Assembly: GCA_021828195.1 (NCBI GenBank)
Contig: JAKASQ010000001.1
Span: forward strand, 169,202-233,201
Direction: 5' to 3'
Length of the DNA: 64,000 nt
From: Thermoplasmata archaeon
GTDB lineage: Archaea; Thermoplasmatota; Thermoplasmata; Lutacidiplasmatales; UBA184
The notes under the pieces were generated by a model. That model worked only from the letters and a program-made list of their open reading frames with translations, was not told where the DNA came from and ran no database searches. Every line of letters begins with the position of its first letter. The stretch's first letter is position 1. Position numbers and translations under genes: made by a program. Of the stretch, positions 29,491 to 60,972 are shown one piece after another.

Positions 29491-29492
29491 CC

Positions 29493-45387: not shown

Positions 45388-45465
45388 ACATGCTCATCGC
45401 GCCGGGTCCACCGCAGCAGTCTTCAAGGACCAAGACCGCAGCCACCTGCTGGGAATCATACCCCT
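45388..45465 (-). repeat. Inverted ~78-bp copy of the 3' end of the Cys-rich gene (38521-38600), encoding ...KGYDSQQVAAVLVLEDCCGGPGAMSM* with no upstream gene body
   Basis: Direct by-eye comparison: GTTAC.CATG.TCATCG.GCCGGG.CC.CCGCAGCAGTCTTC.AGG...GACCG...CCACCTGCTGGG shared. Upstream in-frame TGA ~40 codons before stop. Confidence 0.5.
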
Positions 45466-45786: not shown

Positions 45787-46140
45787 TCAGCTGACGACTC
45801 GGATTCCTTCGCGGATGGTTTGAATGAGCTTTTCCTGCTCGGCCTTGGGCGTGTTCTCTAGAGCCTCAAGCATGTCCTCGAGAATCAGCCCGGTCGCCTT
45901 CTCGAGCGCCCCCCGAACGGCCATCAACTGGAGAAGGACGTCGGCGTACGGCTGATTCTCATCCAGCATACGAATCACGGCATCGAGATGTCCACTCGCG
46001 CGAGACATCCTACCCCGCACAGCACCTTGCAAGTGATGCTCCATACGGCCATCCCCATGCCGGGAGGGGGATTTACCCTTTTTTCCTGTCGCCCTCCTGC
46101 GCAGAAGAAGGTCAAGTTCGTTCCCTTGTCCTTCCGTCAA
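45787..46140 (-). CDS. CsoR/RcnR (DUF156)-family regulator-like protein lacking the canonical Cys/His metal ligands
   Basis: HLQGAVRGRMSRASGHLDAVIRMLDEN.PYADVLLQLMAVRGALEKATGLILEDML resembles CsoR helical core, but Ala replaces the conserved Cys (YCID position) and no HxxxC/H at C-terminus; real start may be M33 (46044). Confidence 0.45.
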   Translation of the reverse strand: MTEGQGNELDLLLRRRATGKKGKSPSRHGDGRMEHHLQGAVRGRMSRASGHLDAVIRMLDENQPYADVLLQLMAVRGALEKATGLILEDMLEALENTPKAEQEKLIQTIREGIRVVS

Positions 46141-46220
46141 TGCCTCGGCCGCATCCTGGCCCTCGGCACGATGGGTTTCCTCGGAAGTAGTTTATAGTTC
46201 ATTCGAATCCCCTGGGGGGG

Positions 46221-47117
46221 ATGGTTGCCGTGGCGGCAGTGGGAGGCCGCGGATCCCAGTCACAGCCGGAGCCGCGTTCCAGGACTCCCACGTTAGGGAC
46301 CACTGGAGCGCTCTCGGCAGAAACTCTTGAGATCAACCGGGCCGCGATCGAGCTCGAGTGTACCCGTCTCTCGTACTCGTACCCGGCGATCAAGGGCTCA
46401 CCCGCGAAACCTGTCTTCCACGGCATCGACATCAAAGTGTGCAAGAATGAACTCGTGGCCATCGTCGGGCCCACGGGCGCAGGGAAGTCCACGATCCTCC
46501 GTTGCCTCGGGGGATTCGTTCACCCGAACGAGGGGCACGTCTACCTGCACGGACAAGAAGTCCTCCGCCCTTCGTCGAAGATCGTCCTCATCCACCAGTC
46601 AATCGCCACGTTCCCGTGGATGACGGCCTTGGACAATGTGAAGCTCGCTCTGACCTGCAAGAAGGTGGATGAGAAAGAAGCGGAACGAACGGCGGCCGCG
46701 ATGCTCGACCTCGTCGGACTAGGCGCCAACAAGTCGAGTTACCCGAAGGAACTAAGCGGCGGGATGCGGCAGAAGGTGGCGGTCGCGAGAGCGCTCGCCG
46801 CGTCCCCATCGATCCTGTTGATGGACGAGCCGTTCGTCCATCTGGACGAGATCGCGGCGGAGGAGCTGCGTCGGGAGATTCACTCCCTGGTCTTCAACCC
46901 CGAAAGCACGCTGGATGCGGTCGTTCTCGTCTCCCACAACCTGACCGAGGTGGTCGAGCTCGCGGACCGCGTCTACGTGATGAATGGTTCGCCCGCAACC
47001 GTGATCGACGAGTTCGGCATCGACCTCCCGCGTCCGCGAGCCTTGCGGGACTCCTCCTTCCTTCTCAGCGTTGACCACCTGATGGGCGACCTGAACACCC
47101 CGAAAACGAAACCGTAG
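46221..47117 (+). CDS. ABC transporter ATP-binding protein (NitT/TauT-like importer family)
   Basis: GPTGAGKSTIL Walker A, LSGGMRQKVAVARAL signature, LLMDEPF Walker B, H-loop VSHN. Confidence 0.85.
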   Translation: MVAVAAVGGRGSQSQPEPRSRTPTLGTTGALSAETLEINRAAIELECTRLSYSYPAIKGSPAKPVFHGIDIKVCKNELVAIVGPTGAGKSTILRCLGGFVHPNEGHVYLHGQEVLRPSSKIVLIHQSIATFPWMTALDNVKLALTCKKVDEKEAERTAAAMLDLVGLGANKSSYPKELSGGMRQKVAVARALAASPSILLMDEPFVHLDEIAAEELRREIHSLVFNPESTLDAVVLVSHNLTEVVELADRVYVMNGSPATVIDEFGIDLPRPRALRDSSFLLSVDHLMGDLNTPKTKP

Positions 47118-47128
47118 GGACCACCGCC

Positions 47129-48745
47129 ATGGAGCCGGTACTCGTCGTTCTGGCCACCCTCGCGACGTTGGGTCGGGTATGGCTCCTCATCGGTCTCTCC
47201 ATCCTCTCCGGATGGGCCTTGGCATTTCTCTCGATCCGAAGTCGGGCCTTCGAAACGGTCTACGTCCCGCTGGTGAACGCGTTCGAGTCCATCCCGGTCA
47301 TCGCGTTCCTTCCCATCGTCCTGGTGGTCTTTGTCTCTCGGCTCGGTGGCCCCCTCGGGAGCGAGCTCGCCGCCGACTTCCTCGTTTTCGACGCGGTTGC
47401 CTGGAACGTCTGGATCGGAGCCTACCAGAGCTTCAAGACCGTTCCGGAACACCTCGGGGAAGTCGCGGAGAACTACAACTTCGGCGTGGTGCGAACTCTC
47501 TGGAACCTCTTCATCCCACACTCGATCCCGCGCATAACCTCCAATCTCTTCTCGAGCTTCGCGGATGCCCTGTTCTACATCTCCGTCAGCGAGGTCTTCA
47601 CCATCGGGCTTCACACCTACTCGACCTTCGGGATTGGGACCCTCATCGTCATGTTCACCGCGAACGGCGATATATCCGACCTGATCCTGGCCTTGACAGC
47701 GATCGGAGTCGCGGTCATCCTCACCACGCTGGCCCTCACTCGCCTCTCCCGGAAGGCCGTGGCCCGCTACGGTCTCGATACGCGGGGAGACATCACGACC
47801 CGACCGGGACCCGCGAACGCTCGGTCGCGCTGGCTCCGCGCGTTCGGGGGCCCGAGACGCAGGATCTCGGCTCGCCTCACCCGGACCGCCGCCGAACGAG
47901 ACCTGCGAACCGGCGCGCCGACACCGACGAAAACCGGAATGCTGGTTAAGTGGGGGGTTTACGCCATTTTGCTGGGCATAGCGGCCTACATCCTCTACGG
48001 TGCGGCCCAATTGATCGTCTCGGTGCCGGGGACGGAGTGGAACTCGCTGTTCGCGCAAACCCCCTTCTTGCTCCTTTCGATGGGTGCCGATTACCTTCGG
48101 GTCTTCGCGGTCGCGGGTGCCGCGCTCGCCGTGTCGATCACGCTGGGATACTACCTCGCGACCCACCCTCGCGCGAATGAGTTCGTTGCTCCTGTAGTTC
48201 AGACGGTCGCCGCGTACCCGGCCCCGACGTACTTCCCACTCTTTGTGGGCGCCACCATCGGGTTCCTCGTCGTCGCCTTCCCTTTCGGGTACGTCGAGTT
48301 GTACGTGTTCATCCTGGGTTTCCTGGCCTGCTTCTACTACGTCTTTTTCGACTTCTGGATCGGCGTGCAAGCCATCCCTTCGGAGTTCTGGGAGGTGATG
48401 GAAAACCATGAGCTCACGTTCCGCCAGCGGATGCGACGGGTCATCCTACCCGCGACCTTCCCGTACCTGATCACGGGGATATCTAGCACGATCAACAGCG
48501 CCTGGGCGGGAATCGCCATCGGCGAGTTCTGGCCGAATATCGTCGGAAATCGAACCCTGGTCGTACAGATCGGGATGATGAAGTTCATCGGCGAGAATCT
48601 GGCGGCCGGGAACGTCGCCTCGGCCGCCTGGGTCTCCTTGCTGTTCGCCGTCGTCGTCGTGATCTACGGCCTCTTCTTCACGCGGAACCTGATGGACCTC
48701 GCCCGTCGTCGGTACGTGGTCGAAGAGGGCGTCTACGCCGGGTGA
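47129..48745 (+). CDS. ABC transporter permease with two fused transmembrane domains
   Basis: 538 aa; two successive ~250-aa permease-like halves each with 5-6 TM segments (second begins MLVKWGVYAILLG). Confidence 0.7.
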   Translation: MEPVLVVLATLATLGRVWLLIGLSILSGWALAFLSIRSRAFETVYVPLVNAFESIPVIAFLPIVLVVFVSRLGGPLGSELAADFLVFDAVAWNVWIGAYQSFKTVPEHLGEVAENYNFGVVRTLWNLFIPHSIPRITSNLFSSFADALFYISVSEVFTIGLHTYSTFGIGTLIVMFTANGDISDLILALTAIGVAVILTTLALTRLSRKAVARYGLDTRGDITTRPGPANARSRWLRAFGGPRRRISARLTRTAAERDLRTGAPTPTKTGMLVKWGVYAILLGIAAYILYGAAQLIVSVPGTEWNSLFAQTPFLLLSMGADYLRVFAVAGAALAVSITLGYYLATHPRANEFVAPVVQTVAAYPAPTYFPLFVGATIGFLVVAFPFGYVELYVFILGFLACFYYVFFDFWIGVQAIPSEFWEVMENHELTFRQRMRRVILPATFPYLITGISSTINSAWAGIAIGEFWPNIVGNRTLVVQIGMMKFIGENLAAGNVASAAWVSLLFAVVVVIYGLFFTRNLMDLARRRYVVEEGVYAG

Positions 48746-48831
48746 TCATGCTGCGGCTTGGCCACAGGACGCTCCGGACCGTCCTAAACCTGGTACGCCG
48801 ACCCTTTCAGCCCGGTCGAGATGGTGTCCGT

Positions 48832-49434
48832 ATGCCCCGAAGGAGCCCCTCCTCGCCGCGTCGCCGGGGGGGTTCCCGGCGGCCCCGAACCCTTTCCGCC
48901 GCCACGGCGTGGGACGCCCACACGAGCGCCGAGTTCGCCGCCCACGATGTGGACGCGACGATGCGCACCATGACCCGCCGACCTCACAACCTCCACATCC
49001 CGACCCTGGCGGGAGGGGCGAGCCGGGCGGAGATCCGCCGGTTCTACACCCACCACTTCATCCCGCACCTCCCGGCCGACATCCGTCTCGAACTCCTCTC
49101 CCGTACCGTCTCCCCGGATCGGGTGGTCGACGAGTTCATCCTCGAATTCACCCACGATCGGGTCATGGACTTCATCTTCCCGGGAATCGCCCCCACCTTC
49201 CGCCGGGTCTCCCTGCCGACCGTAGCCGTGGTGGGCATCCGAGACGGCCGGGTGGACTACGAGCACATCTACTGGGACCAGGCTTCCGCGCTCCGGCAGA
49301 TTGGAAAGCTGGAGGCGGCCGGCCTCCCCGTGGTCGGGGCGGAGGCCTCGGATCAACTCCGCCGGCTTCTGCGGCCCTCCTTACGTCGTCGCCCCGGATC
49401 CCCGAGGTCCGGGACGGGAAGGTCCAGAACTTGA
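48832..49434 (+). CDS. NTF2-like/SnoaL-like domain protein (hypothetical)
   Basis: AEFAAHDVDATMRTMTRRPHNLHIP...EIRRFYTHHF...VVDEFILEFTHDRVMDFIF...HIYWDQASALRQIG pattern of SnoaL-like cyclase/NTF2 fold; start uncertain. Confidence 0.4.
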   Translation: MPRRSPSSPRRRGGSRRPRTLSAATAWDAHTSAEFAAHDVDATMRTMTRRPHNLHIPTLAGGASRAEIRRFYTHHFIPHLPADIRLELLSRTVSPDRVVDEFILEFTHDRVMDFIFPGIAPTFRRVSLPTVAVVGIRDGRVDYEHIYWDQASALRQIGKLEAAGLPVVGAEASDQLRRLLRPSLRRRPGSPRSGTGRSRT

Positions 49435-49555
49435 TGCCGACGCCTTGCCGGGTCGGGTGGGAATCCCCCGTCGTCCCATCGATCTCATGAATCCCGGGAC
49501 CTCACGTCGTGGGCGAACTCCTCCCCGACCCGTTCGCCTTCCGGAGCCGAAGGAT

Positions 49556-49960
49556 ATGACTTCCGAGCGGGCCGGTGCGACGATGCGGACGCTCGAGGAG
49601 TTCTGGAGCCGCATCGGGCTCCCACCGAGCGAACTCCCACGCCAACGGTTCAACCGGCGTCGCTACCTGCCGCTGCTTGATTTCGTGGATCCCACCCCCG
49701 ACGCGACGATCTTGGATGTGGGTGCCGGAATCGGGAACCTGTGCGTCGCGATGCATGCGCCCTACGGGGGTGTCTTCCATTACGCCGACTTCGCATTGCC
49801 GTCGCCCGCCCATCAGGAGAGCCTGCGAAGCCATGGCGTTGAACGGTTCTTCGCCGTGAACCTCGCCGATGCGGATCCGTTCCGGGCGATGCCCGGCGGG
49901 TATGACTGGGTCCTCTTTACCGAGGTCATGGAGCGCCTTGCGGGCAAGGGGGTGCGGTCG
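49556..49960 (+). pseudogene. Class I SAM-dependent methyltransferase, apparently 3'-truncated at the left boundary of an integrated element
   Basis: ILDVGAGIGNL motif I and YDWVLFTEVMERL motif II present. Reading frame then runs antisense through the recombinase gene with Arg/Pro-rich nonsense. Confidence 0.45.
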
Positions 49961-50665
49961 CTATACACTGGGGGTAGCCACCCCCGATTCCGACCCTTTT
50001 CCGCACACCGAGTTTTGCGCCGGCGGGCGCGGGACCCGGACCTTCCGGCACGTTCCCGCAGGCAACCCTACGTGTTGGGCGACCACCTTCCATGGAAGAC
50101 CCCGCTCGCGGAGACCCCGAATCTTCGCGGCCAGCTCGGCCGTGACACGCCGCGGGCGTCCCGGTGGCCTCCCACTCCGCGTTCGCCGTCGTCCCGACTT
50201 GATCTCCTGCATGGCGACCCGCACCCGCTCCGATCGGCGCTGGGACTCGAACGACGCGATCACTGGGAGCAGAGCGAGCAGCACGTCCCGACCGAGGTTC
50301 GGCTTCCCGTCTCCGGGGGTGTCGAGCGTCGGCTCCCTCAAGCTGTGGAACGAGACACCGAGTCGCTCGAGGTCGAGGACCGCTTGCGTGGCTCGGGTGA
50401 ACGTCGCCTCTCGGCTGAATCGGTCAAGCGCCCAGACGAGGAGGTGATTCCAAGGGCGGTGGCGCAGGTTGGCCTCCGCGAGGAGCCGGTCATACTCGCG
50501 GCGTTCCACCTTCCCGGTCCCGCTGACCTTCTCGGCGTAGACCTTGACCACGTCCCAGGCGCGCCGCTCCGCCTCGGCCCGGAGCTCCCGCTCCTGGCCA
50601 TCGAGATCCTGGTCCTCGGTGCTGACCCGGGCGTAGATCGCGACGGACGTTGGCGGGGTGGTCAT
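49961..50665 (-). CDS. Serine recombinase (resolvase/invertase family)
   Basis: VAIYARVSTEDQDLDGQ catalytic Ser motif, C-terminal HTH (LPWKVVAQHVGLPAGTCRKV). Confidence 0.8.
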   Translation of the reverse strand: MTTPPTSVAIYARVSTEDQDLDGQERELRAEAERRAWDVVKVYAEKVSGTGKVERREYDRLLAEANLRHRPWNHLLVWALDRFSREATFTRATQAVLDLERLGVSFHSLREPTLDTPGDGKPNLGRDVLLALLPVIASFESQRRSERVRVAMQEIKSGRRRTRSGRPPGRPRRVTAELAAKIRGLRERGLPWKVVAQHVGLPAGTCRKVRVPRPPAQNSVCGKGSESGVATPSV

Positions 50666-50853
50666 GGATCTCCTGTCAGCTGGTCGGCGGTGACAAAGCC
50701 CGGCAGATCGGAGGACCCGCGGGGCTTCGGCCGATCGGTGAACCACCGGCGACAGATCCGGCAGACGCGCACGACCCTCGGGCCCCGACGTATCCGATAG
50801 GCTCGAGTCCTCGAGTGACCGCACGGCAACCGTGGTTCATCAGGCTCGGTCAT
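50662..50853 (-). CDS. Small zinc-ribbon protein
   Basis: PCGHSRTRAYRIRRGPRVVRVCRICRRWF (C-x-H...C-x2-C). Confidence 0.35.
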   Translation of the reverse strand: MTEPDEPRLPCGHSRTRAYRIRRGPRVVRVCRICRRWFTDRPKPRGSSDLPGFVTADQLTGDP

Positions 50854-51080
50854 GGTGATTCCCCCTCCTCCCCACCCGGACGCTCTTGGGTGCCACCCGA
50901 AAGCGTCCGGGGCGGGGGCATCCCCCGATTCAAGGACCCCGACCTCTTGCCCGTCCGACGATCTTCCCCGTCCGTCTCCACGGAGGCCGGCTCCGCGTCT
51001 ACGACGAACCGTTCGAACTGGCGGTCGAGGGAGGCCGGGTCGCTCAAGCCCCGCCCCCCTCGGGCCGCGCCCGGGCGCGG
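50850..51080 (-). pseudogene. Remnant encoding a paralogous C-terminal segment of the element helicase (…DPASLDRQFERFVVDAEPASVETDGEDRRTGKRS)
   Basis: Amino-acid match to helicase C-terminus (…DPERLDRQFERFVVDAESKRGRFPDASRQRT) with diverged DNA; upstream part of ORF is Arg/Gly-rich nonsense. Confidence 0.35.
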
Positions 51081-51212
51081 TCCCTGGACGGGACGCTCCA
51101 GTTGCGCTCCTCCTCCATGACTGGGCTCGATTGAGAAGGTGGAGCGCGGTTGAGGTAGCGGCCTTCCGACTCCGACCCTCACGAGACCCACCATCCCCGG
51201 CCGCTCGTGCCT

Positions 51213-51246
51213 TTCGGGAGTACGCGCGCAGGCGCGCGCGCGTGTG
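51213..51246. repeat. Alternating purine-pyrimidine (CG/CA) tract, Z-DNA-prone
   Basis: ACGCGCGCAGGCGCGCGCGCGTGTGCGCGCGCG read directly. Confidence 0.6.
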
Positions 51247-51376
51247 CGCGCGCGTTCTACTCTTGATACCGGAACGGGCCGAGTGGTGCCAAGACGGACC
51301 GGGGCGGCGTGTCCGAGGAGCCTCCGAGAGAAGCCCCCCGGACCGGCGCCGCCAAACCCCGCGGGTGGCACGCCGT

Positions 51377-52444
51377 TCATGCCCCCCCGGTGGCTCCGTC
51401 TTTGGCGGCCGACTCCGCTTCGGAGGTAGCAGGAGTCGGGTCGGGGTCGGTCGGTCTTGGGGCCGTGGAGGTCGGGGCGTCCGGCGTCTCCCTCTTGCGG
51501 TCTCCCATCTCGCGGCGGACGCGATGGATGCGCGAGACCCCCACCTTGTAGGTTTGCTGAATGTCCCGGCGCGGGTTGCCGGCGGCGAGTTCGATCGCGA
51601 TGTATCGGTCCACCTCCCTTTCCGCCCAGGGCTTGCCTCGATTCCCCCTTACTTTCCGCACGTGACCTTCGCGGGCATGCACCTGAGTTAGCGACACTCC
51701 CTCCGAAGCGACGAGTGAGTGCACGTAGTCGGCCCCCTCGCCGCACCAGAACTGCAAGTCGATGCTGTCCTGCCTTCGCGCGAGCGCTTCCTGCTCTCGG
51801 GCACGGGCCAGCTCGCTCCTCGCCTTCGCCGATTCGGTTTGCAAGCGCCCGAGCTCCGCGGCCGCCTGATCGAGTTTCCCGACGAACTCCCGACGCTGTC
51901 CCGCGAGTTGCTCACACTCCGCGAGGAGGGAGGCGCGCTTGCGCCCGAGCTCCACGACTTGATCCCGAAGGCGGCCCATCTCCGATTCGAAGCGCCTGCG
52001 GACCGGTTCGATCTCGGCCTGGACCCGGGCCTCTGCTTCCGCCTGGGCCCCTGTGGCGCGTTGCTCGGCCTCCGCCCGATCGGTCTCGAGTTGGGCGATC
52101 CGCACCTTGAGCTCCTGCGCCTGCTCCGACAGGGTCCGCACAATGGCGGCGCGTTGGCGGCCGGCCGACGTGGGCACCATCCGGCCTGTCGTGGCGGAGT
52201 AAGTTGCGATCGCAGCGGCGATCACGAGGGCGCCCCACACCAGAGCCACGAGCCAAGCCGACACCCAGTGATCGGACACGACCAGGGCCCCGACCACGGC
52301 GCTGAGACCCCCAAAGGCGACGGGTTGACCCCAATCAACGCGGCCGCGGACGAAACGCGCGTCTGGCTCAGGACTCGTGAACACGGCTTCGTCCGTTGGG
52401 GCCGGAACCGGGGCAACCCGAACGGACGGTTGCCCACTCATGCG
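51377..52444 (-). CDS. Element-encoded membrane/coiled-coil protein with C-terminal HTH-like segment (hypothetical)
   Basis: Two TM segments, long Ala/Glu/Arg/Gln coiled-coil (RIAQLETDRAEAEQRATGAQAEAEARVQAEIEP...), then REVDRYIAIELAAGNPRRDIQQTYKVGVSRIHRVRREMG. Confidence 0.4.
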   Translation of the reverse strand, partial: RMSGQPSVRVAPVPAPTDEAVFTSPEPDARFVRGRVDWGQPVAFGGLSAVVGALVVSDHWVSAWLVALVWGALVIAAAIATYSATTGRMVPTSAGRQRAAIVRTLSEQAQELKVRIAQLETDRAEAEQRATGAQAEAEARVQAEIEPVRRRFESEMGRLRDQVVELGRKRASLLAECEQLAGQRREFVGKLDQAAAELGRLQTESAKARSELARAREQEALARRQDSIDLQFWCGEGADYVHSLVASEGVSLTQVHAREGHVRKVRGNRGKPWAEREVDRYIAIELAAGNPRRDIQQTYKVGVSRIHRVRREMGDRKRETPDAPTSTAPRPTDPDPTPATSEAESAAKDGATGGA

Positions 52445-53208
52445 TCTGCTCCCGTGCAGAACCCCGCGTCTTCCCGCTCCGCGCCCCCGTGTAGCGGGGG
52501 TTTCCGCACGCCCCGACAGGCCCAACGGACCGAGGAGAGTGCGCGGGGTGGCAGGCGCAGCGTGCGCAGGATCCCGCGCCAGGACTCTCCGCCGGCACGG
52601 AGCCGTCGGGCGTCGTCCCGGCTGTAGATGTAAGACCAGGGGCGCCCACCATCGCCCGGGGTTCCGACGGCGTCACGCCCCCAGAAGACCCATCCCTTCG
52701 GGGGTCTTCCCCTCGCGAACAGTTCGATGTACGAGTGAGCCCACCGACGGGTCAGCCGCCGAATGAGATCGCGCACTTGGGGGGGCTTCTGACTGTGGAC
52801 GCTCGACCGGGGGTACATCAAGACCGAGGGCGGTCGGATGCTCTGAGGTTGAGGCGTAGGGGCGTCCCCGCGCGTCGCGATGAGGAGGAGTTCGTGCCGT
52901 GCCCGGGACCACCAACCACCTCCCTGGTGCTGCTTGTCCCAGACAATCTGCGACTTGTAGTCGAATCCCCACGCGTCGATGACCAGGAACGCCTCTCGGT
53001 TCTTCGGGCCCGGGACCCACAGGAACAGCACGGAGCGCGGGGCCGCTATCTGGCGGATCGGGAGCGTGCAGATCTCCTCGAGTGACATGGTCGGGTAGTG
53101 CGCGTCGACTGACTTCACCTCCCCAATCGACCAATCGTACCTCCAGGGCGGGTCCGCGTAGACCACGTCGAAGGGACCCGGGGGGAGCGAGGGTGTCGCG
53201 GCCCTCAT
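52438..53208 (-). CDS. MT-A70-family N6-adenine DNA methyltransferase
   Basis: VVYADPPWRY (DPPW catalytic motif), LFLWV, phage/plasmid-type orphan methylase. Confidence 0.75.
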   Translation of the reverse strand: MRAATPSLPPGPFDVVYADPPWRYDWSIGEVKSVDAHYPTMSLEEICTLPIRQIAAPRSVLFLWVPGPKNREAFLVIDAWGFDYKSQIVWDKQHQGGGWWSRARHELLLIATRGDAPTPQPQSIRPPSVLMYPRSSVHSQKPPQVRDLIRRLTRRWAHSYIELFARGRPPKGWVFWGRDAVGTPGDGGRPWSYIYSRDDARRLRAGGESWRGILRTLRLPPRALSSVRWACRGVRKPPLHGGAEREDAGFCTGADA

Positions 53209-53726
53209 GCGGGCTCACCCCCGGTTGCTCCCGCTTTCGCGGCCGAGCCCCCCGCGGAGGTATCAGGAGCCGAGGCGAGGGCGGTCGGTCTTGACGCTCG
53301 GAGATCCCGACCCGAAACGCGAGCGGTCAGGTAGGCGCAGAGGGTCGTGGTCTCGCCCCCGGTTACAGGCTCGCTCGGGGCGGGGAGTGTGGGTGTGTGG
53401 GCCGGGACCTCCGGGACCGTTCGACGCTCGGCCGGTGCAAGGGCACGGGTCTCGGCGGTTGGGTGGGCCCTCCCCGTCGTGCAGCACTCCGTGGGGCAGA
53501 AGGCCGTGCAGATCTGGCACCACCGCCTTCCGAGGTGGCCGCGGAAGCGCCGGTCCTTGGAGTCGTACCAGTGGAACCGCGTGATGTGGCCGCACGCCGT
53601 GCACCGGCGGAGCGAGGAGTCGCCCTCGCGGTACGGGACCGGGGCGATCCGTCCCGCCTTGCCGAGCTCCCGGGTCTTGGCCGCATTTCGCTCCGCGAGA
53701 GTGAGGGGGCGCGGGGGCGCGGTCAT
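53205..53726 (-). CDS. Element-encoded Cys-rich hypothetical protein
   Basis: RRCTACGHITRFHWYDSKDRRFRGHLGRRWCQICTAFCPTECC; no family recognised. Confidence 0.3.
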   Translation of the reverse strand: MTAPPRPLTLAERNAAKTRELGKAGRIAPVPYREGDSSLRRCTACGHITRFHWYDSKDRRFRGHLGRRWCQICTAFCPTECCTTGRAHPTAETRALAPAERRTVPEVPAHTPTLPAPSEPVTGGETTTLCAYLTARVSGRDLRASRPTALASAPDTSAGGSAAKAGATGGEPA

Positions 53727-55654
53727 GATGGTTCTCCATCAGTGGAGTCGCCCTTCTTCCGATGGCCGGCTTCGTCAGAGAGCGCGTTTCCGGGGGTATA
53801 CGGGGTTATGGGCGGACCACTTTGGCCAGTCGGGCCACCTTGCGGGGAAGGGTGGCCCGACTGGCCCGGTTGGCTCGCCGCAACCCCCGTCGCCCCCGGG
53901 ATTCCGCTGCCTCCGTCAGAGCAGTCGAACGTTCTCTGACGAGAAGCGTCGGGGAAGCGGCCGCGCTTCGACTCCGCATCGACAACGAAGCGCTCGAATT
54001 GTCGATCGAGACGCTCGGGGTCGAGTACCCGGACGATTCCCTTGTACCGCCTCCCGTCAATCTCCTTTCGAGGGTGGATCCCGAACTGAAGCCCGCGGAG
54101 CCAGCGGGCACACTCACTGAACGTGATGGTCTGGCCAAGAGACTCGACTATCGTCTTGACGGTGAGCGGGACGCGGCGCTCCTCCGTCTGCTCCTCTACC
54201 CTGCCATCTTTGACGACCTGCTTCTTGCCGCCGATCCTCCGCTCGAGGCGGAAGCCAGTCCCGTCCGTCACGACCTCACAGTCGTTGTCGAGCCACTCGT
54301 AAACGACGTTGAGGATCAAGCCCTCGATAGAGTCCGAATTCTGCCGAACGAGGCGCTGTTGAAGTTCCTCGCCGACGGATCGGACTACCTCCATCACCGC
54401 CGGCTCTTCTGCGCCGAGTGCGGCCAGTACGAGAAGAGCCTCCTTCACTCGGTGCGCCTTGACGTTGGCGAGGTCGAGCCTGCTCGGGACCCGGAGCTCG
54501 CCGCGCCGAATCCGAACGAGTGTTCGAAGTCTCCAGAGGAGCAACTTGCGCCGTAAGGCCCGGGCTCTCTCGGCCCATCCGTTCGTCAGGATCAGATCGA
54601 GGTCCTTCGCCGTCGATTCGGCGCTCAGCGGGGTCGTCCTCGAGATTGTCCCGGTGTCGCTGTAGGTCTTGCGAAGCGCGAGGCACGTGATCCCGAACGA
54701 CAGGAAGTTGTCGTTCCGCCCTTTCTCGGAACTGTACCGAGGGATCGTAGCTCCGTCGGCCCTGCTGTTGAGGAACTGGATGAAGTCCGCGGCCTCGCCG
54801 GAGTCGTATACGTCCGCCTCGTCGAGGATCAAGAAGACCGTCCCCCAGGGGTCGATGGCGCGGTAGAGACTCGGAGCGCGGGTTGTCTTGAGGAAGTAGA
54901 GTGCGCGGTATGAGATCCCGCGCATCATGGAGAGCGCCCGTTTCTTTCCCGAACCCGACGGCCCGATCACGGCGAGGATCGGGAGGAACCGTTCGGGGAG
55001 ATTCGCGAAGAGGTCGGCAGCCACCCACGAGGCGATCCCGTTCAGGACCCAGAGCTTCCAGATCGGCGTCTCGGTCTTCGAGCCGGGGTCGTACACCTCC
55101 TCCGTGAGTTTCTGGGCCTCCTGGATGAGTTCGGCGAGCGAGTCGTATTCGGCAACCCCGTCGGGCAGTGTCAGCGCGTTCCGAAGCTTGTCGTCCACCG
55201 GGATGGGCCGGTACGTCGTCCCTTCGACCTCAATCTCGGGGACGATCTCCCAGGACTCGGGGGATGGCGTATAGACAAGGAGCGCCGGACCCGCGTCGGT
55301 GTAAATCTCCTCGACGAATCTGCAGTCGGGTAGCCTCTCGGAACTCGTCGTGACGACGGACGGTCGGAAGACCTCGAGCGCCCAGTCCTTGAGTCGCGGT
55401 CTGGCCTCCCCCTTCTTCTTCGGCCCAAAGTAGAAAGCGTCCCTCGCCTTGACGGGTTGGAGCTCGACCAGCACACCGTAGAGCGCAGTGTAAAGCCGGT
55501 CGAAAACGTAGGTGTACTTCTCGGGGACGAGTTTCTCCTTCTCCCAAACACGCACGGCGAGCTCGTCCGGTGTGAGGTCCAGCAATCCGGCCTTCTCCTC
55601 GACGATCTTGCGGACTGGACCGGGCAGCCGTCGGAGCGAGTCGCTCGCCGTCAT
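53723..55654 (-). CDS. P-loop NTPase / replicative helicase-like protein of the integrated element
   Basis: AVIGPSGSGKKRAL Walker A, VFLILDEAD Walker B; 643 aa; follows PrimPol gene with 4-nt overlap. Confidence 0.6.
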   Translation of the reverse strand: MTASDSLRRLPGPVRKIVEEKAGLLDLTPDELAVRVWEKEKLVPEKYTYVFDRLYTALYGVLVELQPVKARDAFYFGPKKKGEARPRLKDWALEVFRPSVVTTSSERLPDCRFVEEIYTDAGPALLVYTPSPESWEIVPEIEVEGTTYRPIPVDDKLRNALTLPDGVAEYDSLAELIQEAQKLTEEVYDPGSKTETPIWKLWVLNGIASWVAADLFANLPERFLPILAVIGPSGSGKKRALSMMRGISYRALYFLKTTRAPSLYRAIDPWGTVFLILDEADVYDSGEAADFIQFLNSRADGATIPRYSSEKGRNDNFLSFGITCLALRKTYSDTGTISRTTPLSAESTAKDLDLILTNGWAERARALRRKLLLWRLRTLVRIRRGELRVPSRLDLANVKAHRVKEALLVLAALGAEEPAVMEVVRSVGEELQQRLVRQNSDSIEGLILNVVYEWLDNDCEVVTDGTGFRLERRIGGKKQVVKDGRVEEQTEERRVPLTVKTIVESLGQTITFSECARWLRGLQFGIHPRKEIDGRRYKGIVRVLDPERLDRQFERFVVDAESKRGRFPDASRQRTFDCSDGGSGIPGATGVAASQPGQSGHPSPQGGPTGQSGPPITPYTPGNALSDEAGHRKKGDSTDGEPS

Positions 55655-56712
55655 AGCCTCCTCCGCGCGTTTCCGTAGGCCCAGCGGGCGAGTTCCGGAT
55701 CGAGAACCGGGCGGACCGGTTCGGACGGACGCGCCGCGAACCTTTCCGTCTTGAGCGCGCGGAAGGCCGCCGCGCCCTCAACGTGCTTCAGCAGGCTTTG
55801 GACCCCCGCGGCCCGTGCGAGCTTGATCGTCACGACCTTCCACGCCGGCCAGTACGGGCAGCCTACGACCTCCGCCGCTTGGTCCGCGCTCGCGCCGGCC
55901 TCGAGCGCATGAACGACGAGTTTCGGGCAGAGGTCCCAATCTCGCGACTTCCCGTCGGTATGCTCGCAGATCCAGGCGGCGGTCTTCCCGGCGTCGCTCG
56001 CCCGGCGCATACGATCCCGGACATCCGCAGTGCTCGCCGCCGGAGCGACCTTCCGCGCGACGACCTGCGTTCCTCCGGCAGGCGGCTCGCTCCGTTCGGA
56101 GGCACCCCGCCAAGCCTGGTAGAGCCAGTCAGCCCACCGCGCGACCGGTTCGCCAATCCCGGAGAAGACCGGTATCGGGCCGCCGGTGAGGACGCGACAC
56201 GCCCCACCGTCAGAGCCGTCCGGTTTCACGAAGTGGCTCGGCGCGCAGAAGAGGATCCCTCGGGCTAGAACATCGACGTACCCACAGAGCGAAGTCCAAC
56301 GGCCCCCAACCCACTCGGGAATCGAAGTCGTGTACGCCGCGAGGTAGTGCCTCCCGTCGGATTTTGAGCTCTCAGCGTACTGTCCGCCGAACGGCCGAGG
56401 GATCGGGCGACCCTCGGGGGCTACCCCGCCGGGAAGCTTCTTGGTGTCCACGTCGCAGCAGACGAGTTTGAGGCCCTCGTTCTCGAGGACGATGGCGAGC
56501 TGGTCGTCCGGGTGCGTCGACCAGTGGGCCCGGACTTGCTCTTCGGTTCGGAGCGAGCCGTCACGCTGCCAGCGGATCGTCGGGATCGGTGCGAACTTCC
56601 ATGTCCTCGTCTTTGGCTCAAGCACAGCGTTGAGCGTACGAGAGACGGGCACGGCGCTGATCCCTCGGCGGACCCGGGCGACGGCTGTTTCAAGGACCAA
56701 TGGGTCGCTCAC
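55651..56712 (-). CDS. PrimPol-domain (bifunctional primase-polymerase N-terminal domain) protein
   Basis: LAIVLENEGLKLVCCDVDTKK (DxD catalytic motif) and downstream SHF-like segment, typical of pRN1-type plasmid/integrated-element replicases. Confidence 0.55.
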   Translation of the reverse strand: MSDPLVLETAVARVRRGISAVPVSRTLNAVLEPKTRTWKFAPIPTIRWQRDGSLRTEEQVRAHWSTHPDDQLAIVLENEGLKLVCCDVDTKKLPGGVAPEGRPIPRPFGGQYAESSKSDGRHYLAAYTTSIPEWVGGRWTSLCGYVDVLARGILFCAPSHFVKPDGSDGGACRVLTGGPIPVFSGIGEPVARWADWLYQAWRGASERSEPPAGGTQVVARKVAPAASTADVRDRMRRASDAGKTAAWICEHTDGKSRDWDLCPKLVVHALEAGASADQAAEVVGCPYWPAWKVVTIKLARAAGVQSLLKHVEGAAAFRALKTERFAARPSEPVRPVLDPELARWAYGNARRRL

Positions 56713-56924
56713 TGGTTCCTCGCCTCCGCGACGATTGTGAGCCGTCCCGGGCTGGTCTTCGTATAGACGATTAGAAGGTCCTCGCGGGCTGCGATCGGGC
56801 CGACTGCTGCCAGGAAGTTTTCGATGCGGTCAATTCGGCCGCGAACGACAAGCGCAGCTGTCCGTTTCGGCGCGAGAAAGTCACTCGATTCGCGCATGGG
56901 GTCCTTCCTTCGGAGTCGCGGCAA
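56709..56924 (-). CDS. Small hypothetical protein (element)
   Basis: 71-aa ORF in stop/start-overlap chain. Confidence 0.25.
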   Translation of the reverse strand: MPRLRRKDPMRESSDFLAPKRTAALVVRGRIDRIENFLAAVGPIAAREDLLIVYTKTSPGRLTIVAEARNQ

Positions 56925-57066
56925 GCACGAGAATCGACGGGCCGATCGCGGTGAACTCCTCTGCCGTCAGCGTGTCGGGCAGGTTCTCAAGTAGGACGCG
57001 GACGGGGTGGCCGCCCGGGAAGGCGGCTCGCGCCTTCGCACGGAGCGCGGGAAGGTCGGGCGTCAT
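56881..57066 (-). CDS. Small hypothetical protein (element)
   Basis: 61-aa ORF in overlap chain. Confidence 0.2.
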   Translation of the reverse strand: MTPDLPALRAKARAAFPGGHPVRVLLENLPDTLTAEEFTAIGPSILVLAATPKEGPHARIE

Positions 57067-57308
57067 GCGCCGCCCTCGTTCGCCAGTGGTCCGTCATCCA
57101 AGTCCTCGGTGTTAGTGAGCCCCGAGGGCCGGCGCTCGGCCATGTCAATCAGCCGAAGCCAGTCTCCGACTCGGGCTAGAAACACGTCAGCTGGGAGGGA
57201 GGCGGGTTGAGACAGAATCAACCGCTGAAGCGGGTCGGTAGGATCCAGCTCTCGGCGTGCGATCGTCTTGATGTCACGCAGGGGAACTCGTTCGCTTGCC
57301 CGCATCAC
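57063..57308 (-). CDS. Small hypothetical protein (element)
   Basis: 81-aa ORF, 4-nt overlap with downstream ORF. Confidence 0.25.
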   Translation of the reverse strand: MMRASERVPLRDIKTIARRELDPTDPLQRLILSQPASLPADVFLARVGDWLRLIDMAERRPSGLTNTEDLDDGPLANEGGA

Positions 57309-57364
57309 CGAGACTATGGGCGCGCCAGGTGCCTACCCTTCCGAAATGGGGGGTTTCCGCGTGT

Positions 57365-58408
57365 TTAAGTACCCCTTCGAGCGCGTGCTTGGAGGTACGC
57401 CTGTCTGACGTGGGCGCGCGACGGGGGCCGGCGGCCGCTCCTCCGCTCTTCAGTTTGCACGTCGCGGAGCACAGTATCGAAAGAAGCCTCGGGCCTCTTC
57501 TCAAGCACCTTGACGACGAGGACGAGCGCCTGCTTGAGAGCCTGCCTGTGTGGTTCGACGACTATGGCGCGTGGTGGCCGGCCAACGAGGTGGCCGCGCT
57601 CCTCGCTCTCCCGTCGGGCGCGCTCCGCTCGTTGTTTCAAAGCGTTGTGCTCTTTCTGTATGCCGTCGAAGTCCTGAAGTACGCTGTCGTGCGGACTCGC
57701 GGGGCGTCCGAGTTCGGCACAGTCGGCCCAGTACCCCGTCACGTTATGGGAGTCGATTCCAGCGGGCATCGAGAACATCTCGTCCCATTCCATTTCCTCC
57801 TCCCCGATCTCATCCCAGTAAGCCCTGAGAACGTCGCGACGTCGCCTGATTCTCTCCGGCTTGCTCGCCCCGGCTGGGCCCGGGACCTTGCCGTTGCGCG
57901 GGGTGCTCTCATACGTTGCCTCGTACCTGCCTACAATCCTCTCGTGCTCCTCATTCTTCCGCCGACAGACATACTTGAGGGCGCCCAGGGCGGCCATGAC
58001 TCGCTGGGAGGCACCCCCTCTCTGTCGAATCTCGGCATCGAGGAGGTCTGCCATGCCTTTGGACTTGCTCTGCAGGAGAATCCATCCACGCTCCGTCCGC
58101 CTTGCCGTCGGCCACAGAGCTCTCGCTTCATAGTCGGGAGCGCGAACCGCCACTCCTAGGTCGCTCAGGGTGGAGTTGTTCGTAACCCCGGCCGTGCGCA
58201 CCGACTCGAAGACGCCCATGAGTCGAGCCCGCTCCTCTTCCTTCCTAGATGCGTACCAGTCGGAGATGAGGCCGCGGAGTTGCGGGCCGACTGCGTAGCG
58301 GGCGGCATCAATCAGATACTCATCGAGAACGTCATTCATGTGCACCGGCCCCGCCACCGCACATGTCGTCGCAGTGTGGTTCGCCACCGGGTCGCCAGCC
58401 ACCGTCAT
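57365..58408 (-). CDS. Element-encoded hypothetical protein
   Basis: 348 aa, normal composition, ATGA overlap with integrase stop; no family recognised. Confidence 0.4.
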   Translation of the reverse strand: MTVAGDPVANHTATTCAVAGPVHMNDVLDEYLIDAARYAVGPQLRGLISDWYASRKEEERARLMGVFESVRTAGVTNNSTLSDLGVAVRAPDYEARALWPTARRTERGWILLQSKSKGMADLLDAEIRQRGGASQRVMAALGALKYVCRRKNEEHERIVGRYEATYESTPRNGKVPGPAGASKPERIRRRRDVLRAYWDEIGEEEMEWDEMFSMPAGIDSHNVTGYWADCAELGRPASPHDSVLQDFDGIQKEHNALKQRAERARRESEERGHLVGRPPRAIVVEPHRQALKQALVLVVKVLEKRPEASFDTVLRDVQTEERRSGRRPPSRAHVRQAYLQARARRGT

Positions 58409-59790
58409 GCACCGGCTCCCCCTTGCGGAGAAGACTGAGGCGCCAGCGTGGTAGCTGTCGGCGCCCGCATGACGAGCCGTCCGTCGGGTAGGGCGGTAGT
58501 CGCTTCCCATCCCGAGGCGAGCAGCCCCTCCGCCTCACTGACGCTCACGATTCGACCGGCGCGGCTCGGGCCTCGGAGCCGGTCGCGAACGTATTCACCG
58601 ACCTCGCTCGGCGACATCCCCTCCATCTTCGACTTGTCAGCGTCGGACAGCCCGAGCATGGACGCGACCATGTCCCGGAACTCGCTTCGGGCCTGGGTAC
58701 TGTCGTCGCGGGCGGAGAGATTCGTAAGGTACCGTTCACATCGCTTGTAGGACGCGCGCATCTTCTCCACGGTCGATGCTTCGAGCTTTCGCCGGCTTGA
58801 GTAGAGGGCCGATATGCCGGCGTTGTGGCCCAGGATCGCCTCCCGTGTTTGAAAGTCGATAGCTCCATCCATCGACGCCTCCCAGAGACGAGTCGAGCAG
58901 TACGACCTTAGGACGTAAGGAACCCAGTTCACCGTTTCGGGCTTTGCCCGCGCGATCGCGCTTGACAGTTCGACCATGATCGCCTTCTCGCTGACGAACT
59001 TTCCTAGTTGGTCGTACCGCTCGCCCGTAACGAGCGGCGAGTCGCGGGCAAGCTTCTCCCCCGGGAGTTTCGTCGGGACGAACCGCCCCGCGTCGCCCTC
59101 CCTGCGCCGATAGACCATCTGAATCCCCCGCCGCTGTCGAAGGTACTCGATGATTCGGTCGGCGAGGACTTTCGTCCCGAACGTCAGGTACGCCCGTCGG
59201 TTCTTTGAGATCGCCCCCGGGACCTCGATGATGAACGGAACCGTCGAGAAAGTGAGCGTCTTTACGTCTAGCTCGGGGAGGTTGCGGAGGCGAAGGGCCT
59301 CGCCTTCCCGATAGAAGCCGAGAGTGCCGGGCCGAAGCCCGGCGTGCGCCATCAGGAGCGCAACGACCTTGCCCCGAGGAGTGGAAATCGCCTCAACGAT
59401 TCGCTGGAGCTCATCCACGGTCGGAACCCGCTCTCCGACTACCGTCTCCCCGCCGATTTGGACGACACGGGGAAAGCCATCGAACGCGACGTGCTGCGAT
59501 CGGAACCACGCCCGGAGCGCGGCCACGACGACAGCCGTGTAAGCCGAGGCGTGACCCGCCTTCCTGTCCTCGGTGATGAAATCGACCAGGAGGGCTTCGA
59601 GTTTCCGGGGGTTCGCGACGGCTAGAGCGGCGAGCTCGTTCGGAGAAAGCCCGAGCGAGCGAGAGAGAATGCCGAGCCGAACGACGCTACCGTCGGCCGT
59701 TCGCAGCGAGCGGGCCGCCATGCTCTTGTGCCACTCCGCGATTCGCTCGTCCCTGAGCAGATCGTGGAGCCGTCCAGCTTTCCGCGCCAT
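58405..59790 (-). CDS. Tyrosine recombinase / phage-type integrase
   Basis: N-terminal SAM-like core-binding domain; C-terminal catalytic domain with GLRPGTL (Arg), HNAGISALY, LRSYCSTRL (Arg/Tyr region). Confidence 0.7.
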   Translation of the reverse strand: MARKAGRLHDLLRDERIAEWHKSMAARSLRTADGSVVRLGILSRSLGLSPNELAALAVANPRKLEALLVDFITEDRKAGHASAYTAVVVAALRAWFRSQHVAFDGFPRVVQIGGETVVGERVPTVDELQRIVEAISTPRGKVVALLMAHAGLRPGTLGFYREGEALRLRNLPELDVKTLTFSTVPFIIEVPGAISKNRRAYLTFGTKVLADRIIEYLRQRRGIQMVYRRREGDAGRFVPTKLPGEKLARDSPLVTGERYDQLGKFVSEKAIMVELSSAIARAKPETVNWVPYVLRSYCSTRLWEASMDGAIDFQTREAILGHNAGISALYSSRRKLEASTVEKMRASYKRCERYLTNLSARDDSTQARSEFRDMVASMLGLSDADKSKMEGMSPSEVGEYVRDRLRGPSRAGRIVSVSEAEGLLASGWEATTALPDGRLVMRAPTATTLAPQSSPQGGAGA

Positions 59791-59814
59791 CTCCTAACAG
59801 AAGAGACGCCTCCG

Positions 59815-59821
59815 TATAAAG
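59815..59821 (+). promoter_or_regulatory. TATA-box-like element (TATAAAG) 36 nt upstream of dinB start codon
   Basis: Only AT-rich heptamer in the spacer; spacing compatible with a short or leaderless archaeal transcript. Confidence 0.25.
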
Positions 59822-59856
59822 AGTATCCCTTTTCCCATAGGACGTGGATTCTCTAC

Positions 59857-60972
59857 ATGGACATGGACGCCTTCTACGTCTCCTGCGAGCTGCGGGATCG
59901 CCCCCAGGATCGGGGCAAGCCGGTCATCGTCGGCCCGTCTCCGAAGATCGAGCGGACCCGCGGGGTCGTCCTCTCCGCCAGCTACGAGGCCCGCCGCTTT
60001 GGTGTTCACAGTGCGCAGCCGGTCGGAGAGGCCGATCGCCGGTGTCCGGAGGCGATCTGGATCTCTCCGGACCATGCCAAGTACGCTCGGATCTCCGACG
60101 AGGTGCGGGTCTGGCTCTCCGCACGCTTCGACCCGGTCGTCGCGCACAGCATCGACGAGTTCGCCTTTCTCCTGGACGTCAACACCGCGGAGGAGGCCCG
60201 CGCTCGGGCGGAAGAGTTCCAGCGGGGTTTCCGGGAGGAGCAGGGACTGCCGTCCTCGATCGGGATCGCTTCGCACCGCATCCTCGCGAAGATCGCGAGC
60301 GACCGGGCCAAGCCCGGCGGGATCGTGCTCGTGCCGATGGATCCCGAGTCGATCCAGACCTTTCTCGGCCCGCTCTCCGTCCGCGCGATCCCGGGAGTCG
60401 GACCGAAGACCGAGGAGCGACTCCGCTCGCTCGGGATCGAACATGTCGAGGATCTCGCCCGCCATCGCCGCGCGGAACTACGGGCGGCCGTGGGAGAGTG
60501 GGCAGAGGAATTGCTCGCTCTTGCCGCCGGTCACCCGCGACCCGATCCCGTGGAACGCGACGGTCCGCGGTCCCGCTCGACCGATCGGACCTTGCCGGAG
60601 GACATCGACGACCCCCTCGAGATCGAGGGAATCGTTCGGGAACTCTCCCGGTCCCTCGCGTCGACGCTCGCCCAGGAACGACTGCGCTACGGACGCGGGG
60701 GGGTCGGGATCAAGTGGGCCGACTTCACACGCGTGACCCGGACGCGGGCCCTTCCCGGGCGGGTCGAAGGCCCCGAGCCGCTCGAAGAGACCGCCGTCCG
60801 CCTCGTCCGCGAACTCCTCGCGGAAGAGCGGCTCGGTCGCCGACGCAAGGTGCGCCTCCTGTCGGTGCGCGTCGAGCGGCTCGCGCCGGCGCTGCACCAC
60901 CCGCCCTCGCTCGACCGGTTCGACGCGGAGGTTCCCCCGCAGAGTAATAGCGCGCGGCGACCGTTCGACTGA
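59857..60972 (+). CDS. dinB: Y-family DNA polymerase IV (Dpo4/Dbh/DinB)
   Basis: MDMDAFYVSCE (catalytic Asp pair), SIDEFAF, GIASHRILAKIASD, little-finger domain. Confidence 0.85.
   Translation: MDMDAFYVSCELRDRPQDRGKPVIVGPSPKIERTRGVVLSASYEARRFGVHSAQPVGEADRRCPEAIWISPDHAKYARISDEVRVWLSARFDPVVAHSIDEFAFLLDVNTAEEARARAEEFQRGFREEQGLPSSIGIASHRILAKIASDRAKPGGIVLVPMDPESIQTFLGPLSVRAIPGVGPKTEERLRSLGIEHVEDLARHRRAELRAAVGEWAEELLALAAGHPRPDPVERDGPRSRSTDRTLPEDIDDPLEIEGIVRELSRSLASTLAQERLRYGRGGVGIKWADFTRVTRTRALPGRVEGPEPLEETAVRLVRELLAEERLGRRRKVRLLSVRVERLAPALHHPPSLDRFDAEVPPQSNSARRPFD

Follow-up and report, generated by a model that had tools for sequence, protein, structure and literature searches.

A probable plasmid-like element of 32 kb inserted at the start of dinB in a Thermoplasmata archaeon

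Cryptic integrated elements of archaea and the dinB locus

The archaeal cryptic integrated elements described so far already include separate PrimPol and helicase genes, Cch/MCM-like helicases, short att sites, insertion sequence (IS) insertions and protein-gene targets (PMC6563490), and together with integrative plasmids they cover a reported size range of 2.6-98 kb (PMC6563490, PMC4158269, PMC5862659). We analyzed a 64,000-nt stretch of DNA from a Thermoplasmata archaeon, called the window throughout, in which 32,089 bp (27771-59859) are inserted in codons 3-7 of dinB, a gene for a Y-family polymerase. The insertion is site specific, the proteins of its core could be identified, and a sister element displays the corresponding attP architecture. 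We consider it probable that the inserted DNA is a cryptic integrated plasmid-like element, namely, a single att-bounded insertion made of a right-hand core and acquired left-hand DNA. It is an ordinary member of what Krupovic et al. 2019 (PMC6563490) call cryptic integrated elements and not a recognizable provirus or integrative and conjugative element. A first-pass annotation of the same DNA had described an integrated plasmid-like element with a tyrosine and a serine recombinase, a PrimPol-helicase module and an orphan MT-A70 methylase; these genes were all confirmed, and the ~10 kb flagged there proved, by comparison with empty sites, to be the replication and integration core of the larger insertion.

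Like described cryptic integrated elements (PMC6563490, PMC4158269) and elements bearing an archaeo-eukaryotic primase (AEP) (PMC5862659), the one reported here has a tyrosine integrase at one end beside att, short att repeats that are found only by comparison with an empty site, PrimPol and helicase genes (separate or fused in such elements), no virion or conjugation genes, variable cargo, IS insertions and a size within the known range. It differs from them in its Thermoplasmata host, and a limited literature search found no earlier description of such an element in Thermoplasmata. Whereas the reported protein-gene targets are 3' distal, the target here is the first codons of dinB, from which the start codon is removed. 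The protein families also set it apart, those of the helicase and PrimPol being very small (19 matches in a word-indexed search of 5.8 billion proteins and 28 relatives by phmmer among 1.84 billion representatives, respectively) and having no Pfam model over threshold, while the integrase family goes undetected by Pfam.

As in the pRN1 replicase ORF904, PrimPol catalytic motifs are present and a helicase gene directly follows, and remote PrimPol homologues have exactly the fused ORF904-type architecture. In ORF904, however, PrimPol, PriCT-1 and D5_N/superfamily 3 (SF3) domains form one polypeptide, whereas here the genes are separate and the helicase is not SF3-like; of the pRN1- or pTN-type replication module first proposed, the pairing of PrimPol with a Walker A/B helicase thus stood, while the pRN1 type did not. 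The SCCmec and SaPI modules (PMC7581432, PMC9371898) are alike in that Cch is the best structural match to the helicase and in that a serine recombinase and a dedicated primase lie beside the helicase, but those systems are bacterial, and the sequence identity of the helicase to its counterparts there is only 10-14%. Moreover, their primase is CCPol, derived from an A-family polymerase, and not an AEP PrimPol, and SCCmec integrases are large Ccr-type serine recombinases, whereas here it is a tyrosine recombinase that integrates and the serine recombinase is of the small resolvase type. Finally, SSV-type integrases (PMC7253208, PMC8371274) are likewise archaeal tyrosine recombinases acting in the site-specific integration of plasmids and viruses; in that type, attP lies inside int and the gene is split on integration, whereas here int stays intact at 461 aa, with the att core 55-69 bp upstream of its ATG.

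For an integrative plasmid family of uncultured Thermoplasmata from soil and mine drainage, the locus provides a cleanly delimited example (attL, attR, attB and sister attP). It also documents two protein families: that of the integrase is large, specific to the lineage and missed by Pfam models (>172 members, YxxR for HxxR), and that of the Cch/MCM-like helicase, which is paired with PrimPol, is very small. Read as a single unit, it shows that an element can bring along 20 kb of genes for repair and metal resistance and at the same time rewire the beginning of a host DNA repair gene. Current concepts are unchanged; the value lies in annotation and in the choice of enzymes (the integrase/att pair and the primase/helicase pair).

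Ends of the insertion and the start of dinB

The extent of the insertion was read from the uninterrupted FTHFS-dinB locus, which was found in two related populations, on contigs L027 (95% DNA identity) and L025 (90%). The DinB homologues P0140 (95% identity) and P0141 (89%) are located on L027 and L025/L026, respectively. BLAST comparison with the window showed that the sequence upstream of dinB in these contigs corresponds to 27437-27770 and their dinB to 59845 onward; homology picks up again at 59845-59852, and in both L027 and L025, window position 27770 is joined directly to 59845/59852, with an overlap of 8-12 nt. In L003, a more distant relative (76%), dinB is likewise intact, starting MNWILYVDMD. 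An imperfect direct repeat of 15 bp, matching at 11 of the 15 positions, lies at both breakpoints (TGGGTCGTTTACATG at attL, 27756-27770; TGGATTCTCTACATG at attR, 59845-59859), its only exact run being TACATG. The attB of L027 reads ..ACC ATG AGA TGG GTC GTC TAC GTG GAC ATG GAC.., the left junction of the window reads ..GCC ATG AGA TGG GTC GTT TAC ATG and then TATGACCC, and the right junction reads CATAGGACG TGG ATT CTC TAC ATG and then GAC ATG GAC.. The right end had been placed correctly at the tyrosine integrase beside dinB, where attR lies; the extent of 49556-59860 had not, as attL is 21.8 kb farther to the left.

Both ends were found joined in L063, a contig of 1,989 bp that carries P0021, the nearest relative of the window integrase (79% identical). 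Upstream of int, L063 is collinear, without gaps, with window positions 59791-59859 and then directly with 27771-27799, i.e., with right arm, core and left arm in succession. L063 thus appears to hold the two ends as an attP, in circular or tandem form, which at the sequence level confirms both ends of the window insertion, and because the ends are joined there, 27771-27799 is a genuine left arm. Within it, GAATCAGGGGAA is a 13-nt exact run shared with L063 past the junction and pairs as an inverted repeat with CCCTTTTCCC of the right arm; this inverted repeat lies ~17 nt to each side of the core in both contigs (window, CCCTTTTCCC...GGGGAAAAGAGG; L063, TTCCCCTG...CAGGGGAA). The predicted attP junction of the window element is GGACGTGGATTCTCTACATGTATGACCCATGAATCAGG, and the predicted restored attB is ATGAGATGGGTCGTTTACATGGACATGGACGCC. 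Integration would proceed by Int recombining the element attP with attB in dinB codons 3-7, strand exchange presumably taking place in the shared TACATG, and recombination of attL with attR by the same enzyme would release a circle.

Three of the junctions were directly supported by independent assemblies. The window has a GC content of 62-71%, its closest named relatives are metagenome-assembled genomes (MAGs) labeled "Thermoplasmata archaeon," and the archaeal markers TFIIB and aIF5B occur near the locus (NCBI MAG GCA_027378235.1). L028, identical to the window over 18039-30920, spans attL; L024 (30883-49358) spans the block junction at 30976; and attR is spanned by both the ENA contig L002 (49218-59999) and the NCBI MAG contig L001 (49586 to the end of the window). 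The link at 49218-49358 is a 141-nt overlap of the L024 and L002 contigs in the SnoaL gene. No difference from the window was found in two other assemblies over 49779-59999 or in L001 up to 60809. L002 differs from the window at 10 positions, all in 49359-49778 and including a 1-nt deletion at 49695 that shifts the frame of the methyltransferase fragment; since the differences are confined to this interval, the break at 49358 is only a single-nucleotide polymorphism bubble. Assembly breakpoints (49218/49358 and 59859/59999 in k141 contigs; 49586 in the NCBI MAG) were considered as element boundaries and rejected, the one at 49358 being this bubble. L024 differs from the window at four sites in 48812-49021 and at none across 37129-48811, and at least three haplotypes were seen in the region of the methyltransferase fragment.

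These data bear on a smaller model, in which an element of ~10.3 kb (49556-59860) lies between a disrupted S-adenosylmethionine (SAM)-methyltransferase gene and dinB, possibly in the form of two related elements in tandem. Methyltransferase homology indeed ends ~15 nt from the recombinase stop codon, a helicase remnant sits beside the recombinase, and GC content rises near 49 kb. At the empty sites, however, dinB is preceded by the sequence of window 27437-27770 and by no methyltransferase, the L063 attP places the left arm at 27771-27799, and the 49358 break is accounted for as above. Neither was any att-like repeat present near 49.2-50.0 kb, and the only direct repeats linking 48.6-51.5 kb with 59.7-60.05 kb were chance 10- to 12-mers; the repeat sought at both ends of the element exists, imperfectly, at the outer breakpoints alone. 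We give this model almost no credence. The methyltransferase gene was also rejected as an integration target, since it lies inside the 27771-59859 insertion and the empty sites show other sequence; it follows from the position of attL that the fragment belongs to the insertion and is not a split host gene. It does encode the N-terminal part of the protein only, as first annotated, but its frame is not ended by the recombinase gene: the open reading frame (ORF) continues to 50800, and homology alone stops near 49945. The fragment, polymorphic and frameshifted in one haplotype, is probably a pseudogene.

The insertion alters the start of dinB. DinB starts with MRWVVYVDMDAFY or MNWILYVDMDAFY in relatives, while the window reads ..HRTWILY-MDMDAFY. 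The native ATG and the region upstream of it are left at attL as a 10-codon stub (MRWVVYMYDP*), and the W-I-L-Y codons that the element contributes at attR are in frame but have no start codon. No start codon occurs between 59728 and 59857, making ATG 59857 the first usable one, and the 371-aa DinB would lack the six residues of beta-strand 1. The conserved TATAAAG in the right arm, which precedes the int ATG by 34 nt and the dinB ATG by 26 nt, probably serves as promoter of int and could also drive a leaderless dinB transcript, with a predicted start near 59853-59857. It is conceivable, although we regard it as improbable, that a subclade of these integrases has come to target the 5' end of dinB instead of tRNA genes, with an attP that is an in-frame mimic of codons 3-7 (W-I-L-Y-M in place of W-V-V-Y-V), generates a new ATG and brings a TATA box to 26 nt upstream, such that dinB would be transcribed from the divergent integrase promoter region as a leaderless, N-terminally shortened product. 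If so, host mutagenesis and damage tolerance would be coupled to the element's own regulation, in an element that also carries the XPB-Bax1 repair pair.

Core genes and sister elements

The right-hand 10.3 kb (49.6-59.9 kb) comprises Int, ORF347, small ORFs, PrimPol, the helicase, ORF173, a methylase slot and the serine recombinase (Table 1). All plausible genes over 49961-59790 are on the minus strand, as had been noted, and most junctions, albeit not all of them, are 4-nt overlaps of the ATGA type (58405-08, 56709-12, 55651-54, 53723-26, 53205-08, 52438-41 and 50662-65). With its intact genes and overlapping starts and stops, the core is free of decay.

Sequence searches of the integrase, PrimPol and the helicase against the PDB returned noise only. 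On the integrase, Pfam PF00589 scored 12.3 bits, under the cutoff of 27.1. Residues R153, K196, Y292, R295, H322 and Y330 are invariant in 36 sequences, and the first catalytic His of the R-K-H-R-H/W-Y set is replaced by the invariant Y292, giving YxxR for HxxR. The AF2 model (pLDDT, 87.6) gave Foldseek matches in the PDB that, among those listed, were all but one tyrosine recombinases (Xer/XerA, IntI, Cre, lambda Int, etc.), the best being the archaeal Xer recombinase 4a8e (E, 2e-9). Its more than 172 homologues are from Thermoplasmata, and the protein belongs to a large family specific to that lineage.

PrimPol scored 22.1 bits with PF09250 (gathering cutoff, 22.8; E, 2e-4), a marginal miss; pairwise BLAST against fused PrimPol-helicase homologues was not significant, and tblastn against plasmids gave no match. 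Its identity is secured, because its phmmer homologues (E, 1e-15 to 1e-29) score 30-49 bits with PF09250 over the aligned region, some of them also having PriCT_1, D5_N or DUF5906; because the catalytic positions D87, D89, G120, H122 and D147 (DxD, GxH, D) are invariant in the family alignment; and because profile-profile alignment with bona fide PrimPol domains is collinear (hhalign E, 0.0015).

The helicase matched no Pfam, NCBIfam, PHROG or PADLOC family, with D5_N, DUF5906 and Pox_D5 all absent, and tblastn against PLSDB plasmids and INPHARED phages gave no match. In the alignment, G231, G236 and K237 of Walker A and E279 and D281 of Walker B are invariant, and D278 is nearly so. The predicted fold is Cch/MCM-like and not of the SF3 type of pRN1, as SF3 structures rank under Cch and MCM in the fold comparison. 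Several homologues carry a PF09250 or PF01807 domain as an N-terminal fusion, and the relatives in IMG/VR were limited to L061 and L062, over a 31%-identical segment (query residues 144-451). In episomal replication, PrimPol would prime and the putative hexameric helicase would unwind, as suggested by the protein families. Their encoding by two separate genes has parallels in the primase-helicase pairs of SCCmec and SaPI (PMC7581432, PMC9371898) and in archaeal cryptic integrated elements (PMC6563490). An imperfect inverted repeat of 51 nt (53789-53901; 73% complementary, 11-nt spacer) was observed in the part of the gene encoding the low-complexity, low-pLDDT C-terminal tail.

Among the remaining core proteins, the MT-A70 methylase also matched phrog_359 (1e-50) and PADLOC MTase_II (1e-43). 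No restriction enzyme was matched among the other element proteins scanned in PADLOC, and the orphan methylase may methylate element and host DNA against restriction. ORF173, ORF347 and ORF354 had been said to belong to no recognizable family, which was borne out in Pfam, NCBIfam and PADLOC, ORF354 giving weak coiled-coil noise only. The 3' tail of ORF354 (51384-51459) and that of ORF173 (53218-53293) are 76-nt direct repeats of 80% identity (repeat family D1), 1834 nt apart start to start, with MT-A70 and most of ORF354 between them. On the serine recombinase, phrog_125 (DNA invertase) matched over residues 60-262 of the long ORF, and the protein is 60% identical to the resolvase of L015; judged by its length of 234 aa, it is not a large serine integrase. 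It might resolve multimers or reshuffle the helicase-proximal cassette region.

Could the ORFs without family conceal a virus? If ORF347, ORF354, ORF173 or the small ORFs encoded virion proteins of an archaeal virus not yet described, the insertion would be a provirus, and the several ORFs without recognizable family, as well as the two distant (31%) helicase relatives on IMG/VR contigs, would fit. Yet the only PHROG matches were those of the integrase, resolvase and methylase, and none of the ORFs scanned matched a family of capsid, portal, terminase or packaging ATPase proteins. INPHARED phages gave no match, and the variable ORFs are not the same from one sister element to the next. We therefore consider a provirus very unlikely. 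Conjugation ATPases of the VirB4/VirD4 type were likewise absent among the ORFs scanned in 27.8-59.8 kb, where small ORFs were not exhaustively scanned.

Contigs with 72-75%-identical helicases agree to a large extent in gene order (Int, variable gene(s), small ORFs, PrimPol, helicase, ORF173-like gene, methylase slot and second recombinase); synteny was followed on L015, L016-19, L020-23, L063 and L064. Common to all contigs with such helicases is only the PrimPol-helicase pair, and no integrase was found on L016-L019. The methylase slot is occupied by MT-A70 in the window and by N6_N4_Mtase in L020. L015, L019 and L064 have a resolvase as their second recombinase, and L020 has a Phage_integrase. 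The serine recombinase follows the helicase in L015 and L019 and sits at the far end in L064; since the family regularly includes it, its presence is no sign of a second element. L064 has an integrase of 59% identity and the same layout, but its helicase is a canonical D5_N/DUF5906 one. Among sisters, conservation is much higher in the helicase (72-75%) than in PrimPol (38-41%) and the integrase (32-43%), indicating modular exchange. The integrase adjoins tRNA-Ala in L015 and tRNA-Ile in L020-L023, so that dinB is an exceptional target in a family whose members usually integrate at tRNA genes. L020 further contains, at 8142-8255, a 38-codon remnant of a resolvase N terminus overlapping the end of the N6_N4 methylase gene, and its Phage_integrase-type recombinase (238 aa) lies where other members have the resolvase. 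In L015, an IS (DDE_Tnp_1, DUF4096) lies at 7522-8208, between the integrase-proximal genes and PrimPol.

Exchange between family members is also visible next to the serine recombinase. Downstream of ORF354, before ORF63 and the resolvase, lie ~330 nt without called gene and the diverged fragment of a helicase C terminus that had been reported there; gene callers disagree on an ORF114 over the ~190 nt that follow the ~330 nt. This 55-nt remnant (..LDRQFERFVVDAE..) is 87-88% identical to the helicase genes of L016/L020 (E down to 6e-12) and ~73% (40/55) identical to the window's own. This part of the element has clearly undergone reshuffling through recombination between family members. Of the tandem integration with partial deletion that had been suggested, the origin of the remnant in a different family member was upheld, while a second att-like site was not found; recombination between related elements is plausible. 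Two further structures were noted, an alternating CG palindrome (CGCGCGCAGGCGCGCGCGCGTGTGCGCGCG) at 51223-51252, upstream of ORF63 and the resolvase, and a hairpin-forming inverted repeat of 23 nt at 50870-50916, inside the disputed ORF114; both are candidate res, regulatory or origin sequences.

Table 1. Positions of features of the insertion and of dinB in the window
Feature	Position	Strand	Basis or remarks
dinB 5' stub at attL	27750..27770	+	Native ATG 27750, codons 1-7; matches L027/L025 dinB start to 27770, diverges after
Left arm (half of attP)	27771..27799		Gap-free match to L063 post-core sequence; 13-nt exact run; similarity ends 27800
Captured chromosomal-type block	27800..30976	+	GC 0.70 (host-like); 74-78% DNA identity to L044, L029, L051
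Last ~41 codons of 228-aa gene	27800-27922	+	Homology breakpoint at 27800
XPB helicase	28039-29490	+	Pfam ResIII/XPB_DRD
Bax1/DUF790	29493-31061	+	Pfam DUF790
Cargo mosaic	30977..49555		GC 0.62-0.65; Pfam scans, L024 gene calls, composition profile
Glyoxalase; sulfocyanin-like gene	within 30977-49555		Pfam scans
IS transposase, 555 aa	31495-33162	-	DDE_Tnp_1; Pfam
MFS transporter fragment, 153 aa	33317-33778	+	Adjoins transposase
SAM methyltransferase	38623-39213		Pfam
Cation-efflux gene	41488-42384	-	Pfam
CsoR	45787-46044	-	Pfam
ABC ATPase and permease	46221-48745		Pfam
SnoaL-like gene	48961-49434		Pfam
Truncated SAM-dependent methyltransferase	49556..49945	+	N-terminal ~60% of domain; Methyltransf_12 positions 1-79 of 98, E 1e-3
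Small serine recombinase (resolvase/invertase type), 234 aa	49961..50665	-	PF00239 93.9 bits; YARVSTEDQ motif
ORF63	50662-50853	-	Precedes serine recombinase
Helicase C-terminus remnant, 55 nt	50988..51042	-	Source is a different family member
ORF354	51377..52441	-	Coiled-coil middle, C-terminal helix-turn-helix-like region; weak coiled-coil and Trp_repressor matches only
MT-A70 N6-adenine DNA methyltransferase, orphan	52438..53208	-	PF05063 82 bits; ADPPW residues 18-22
ORF173, Cys-rich	53205..53726	-	56-82% identical to L016, L017, L019; downstream of helicase in sisters; no family match
Replicative helicase, 643 aa	53723..55654	-	Walker A/B; Cch/MCM-like AAA+ fold (predicted)
PrimPol (archaeo-eukaryotic primase), 353 aa	55651..56712	-	Motifs CCDVD, SDGRH, YVDVL
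Three small ORFs (62, 61, 80/81 aa)	56709..57308	-	ORF61 conserved in L020 and L022
ORF347	57365..58408	-	No family match; 40% identity to gene downstream of L063 integrase
Tyrosine integrase, 461 aa	58405..59790	-	phrog_1 E 2e-8; catalytic residues; fold
Right arm and attR core	59791..59859		TATAAAG 59825-59831, CCCTTTTCCC, core copy 59845-59859 TGGATTCTCTACATG; kept in L063, partly in L015
dinB (Y-family polymerase)	59857..60972	+	Start is ATG within att core; 371 aa vs 377 aa in relatives

The left-hand 21.8 kb and variation around the locus

The 21.8 kb that separate the 29-bp left arm from the core genes contain no gene common to the sister elements. Position 27800 is the exact point from which the sequence is homologous to that upstream of XPB in other Thermoplasmata (L044, L029), and the end of this captured block, at 30976, falls in the last codons of Bax1. 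No terminal inverted repeats were found around the transposase at 31495-33162. A scan for internal att-like copies within the insertion, the signature of tandem elements, found none. Because the left-hand genes are absent from sister elements and no internal att-like site exists, we read the insertion as one att-bounded unit with a mosaic interior.

A different history is possible, if rather doubtful: only ~10 kb (roughly 49.4-59.86 kb) would be the element proper, and the 21.8 kb would have been added once it was integrated, whether through insertion (illegitimate or IS-mediated) or through recombination with further integrated elements, as a junkyard and not as functional cargo, so that the composite may or may not excise. 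Consistent with such late entry, the left part shares no gene with sister elements, blocks end inside genes (27800 in the 228-aa gene, 30976 in Bax1, and the MFS and methyltransferase fragments), an IS transposase is present, GC content differs between blocks, and the helicase remnant from another family member points to past recombination between elements. Against it, intact att arms stand at either end of the whole 32 kb, no att-like site lies between them, and such cargo is common in integrative elements. The two accounts differ in history more than in present structure, and of the two, we favor the description as a single unit.

Several points nevertheless count against that description. 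The att core is short and imperfect, only 6 bp of it being exact; an exact scan of IMG/VR gave no match to the attP junction or circular form of the window element itself; PrimPol stays under Pfam's own threshold by 0.7 bits; no replication origin was identified; and the left-hand 21.8 kb, with no family genes, truncated genes and a block of host-like GC content, could be trapped rather than carried.

Variation was also observed around the insertion. A 2.4-kb segment (25070-27437) with a GrpB-like gene and a formate-tetrahydrofolate ligase gene is present in the window and in L028 and is absent from the otherwise collinear L025; the ligase gene lies upstream of dinB in L027 too, and a toxin-antitoxin-like pair is found there in L003. 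From these contigs, the region upstream of dinB appears to be variable in the lineage. At ~30883-31023, close to the 30976 breakpoint, two independent assemblies break (megahit contig start at 30883; L028 end at 30920), which could be due to strain variation or a repeat. In the chromosomal flank to the right of dinB (60810-63063), 11 sites differ from L001, whereas the element and the initial 950 bp of dinB show no difference; the element and the start of dinB may thus have been shared or swept more recently than the right flank.

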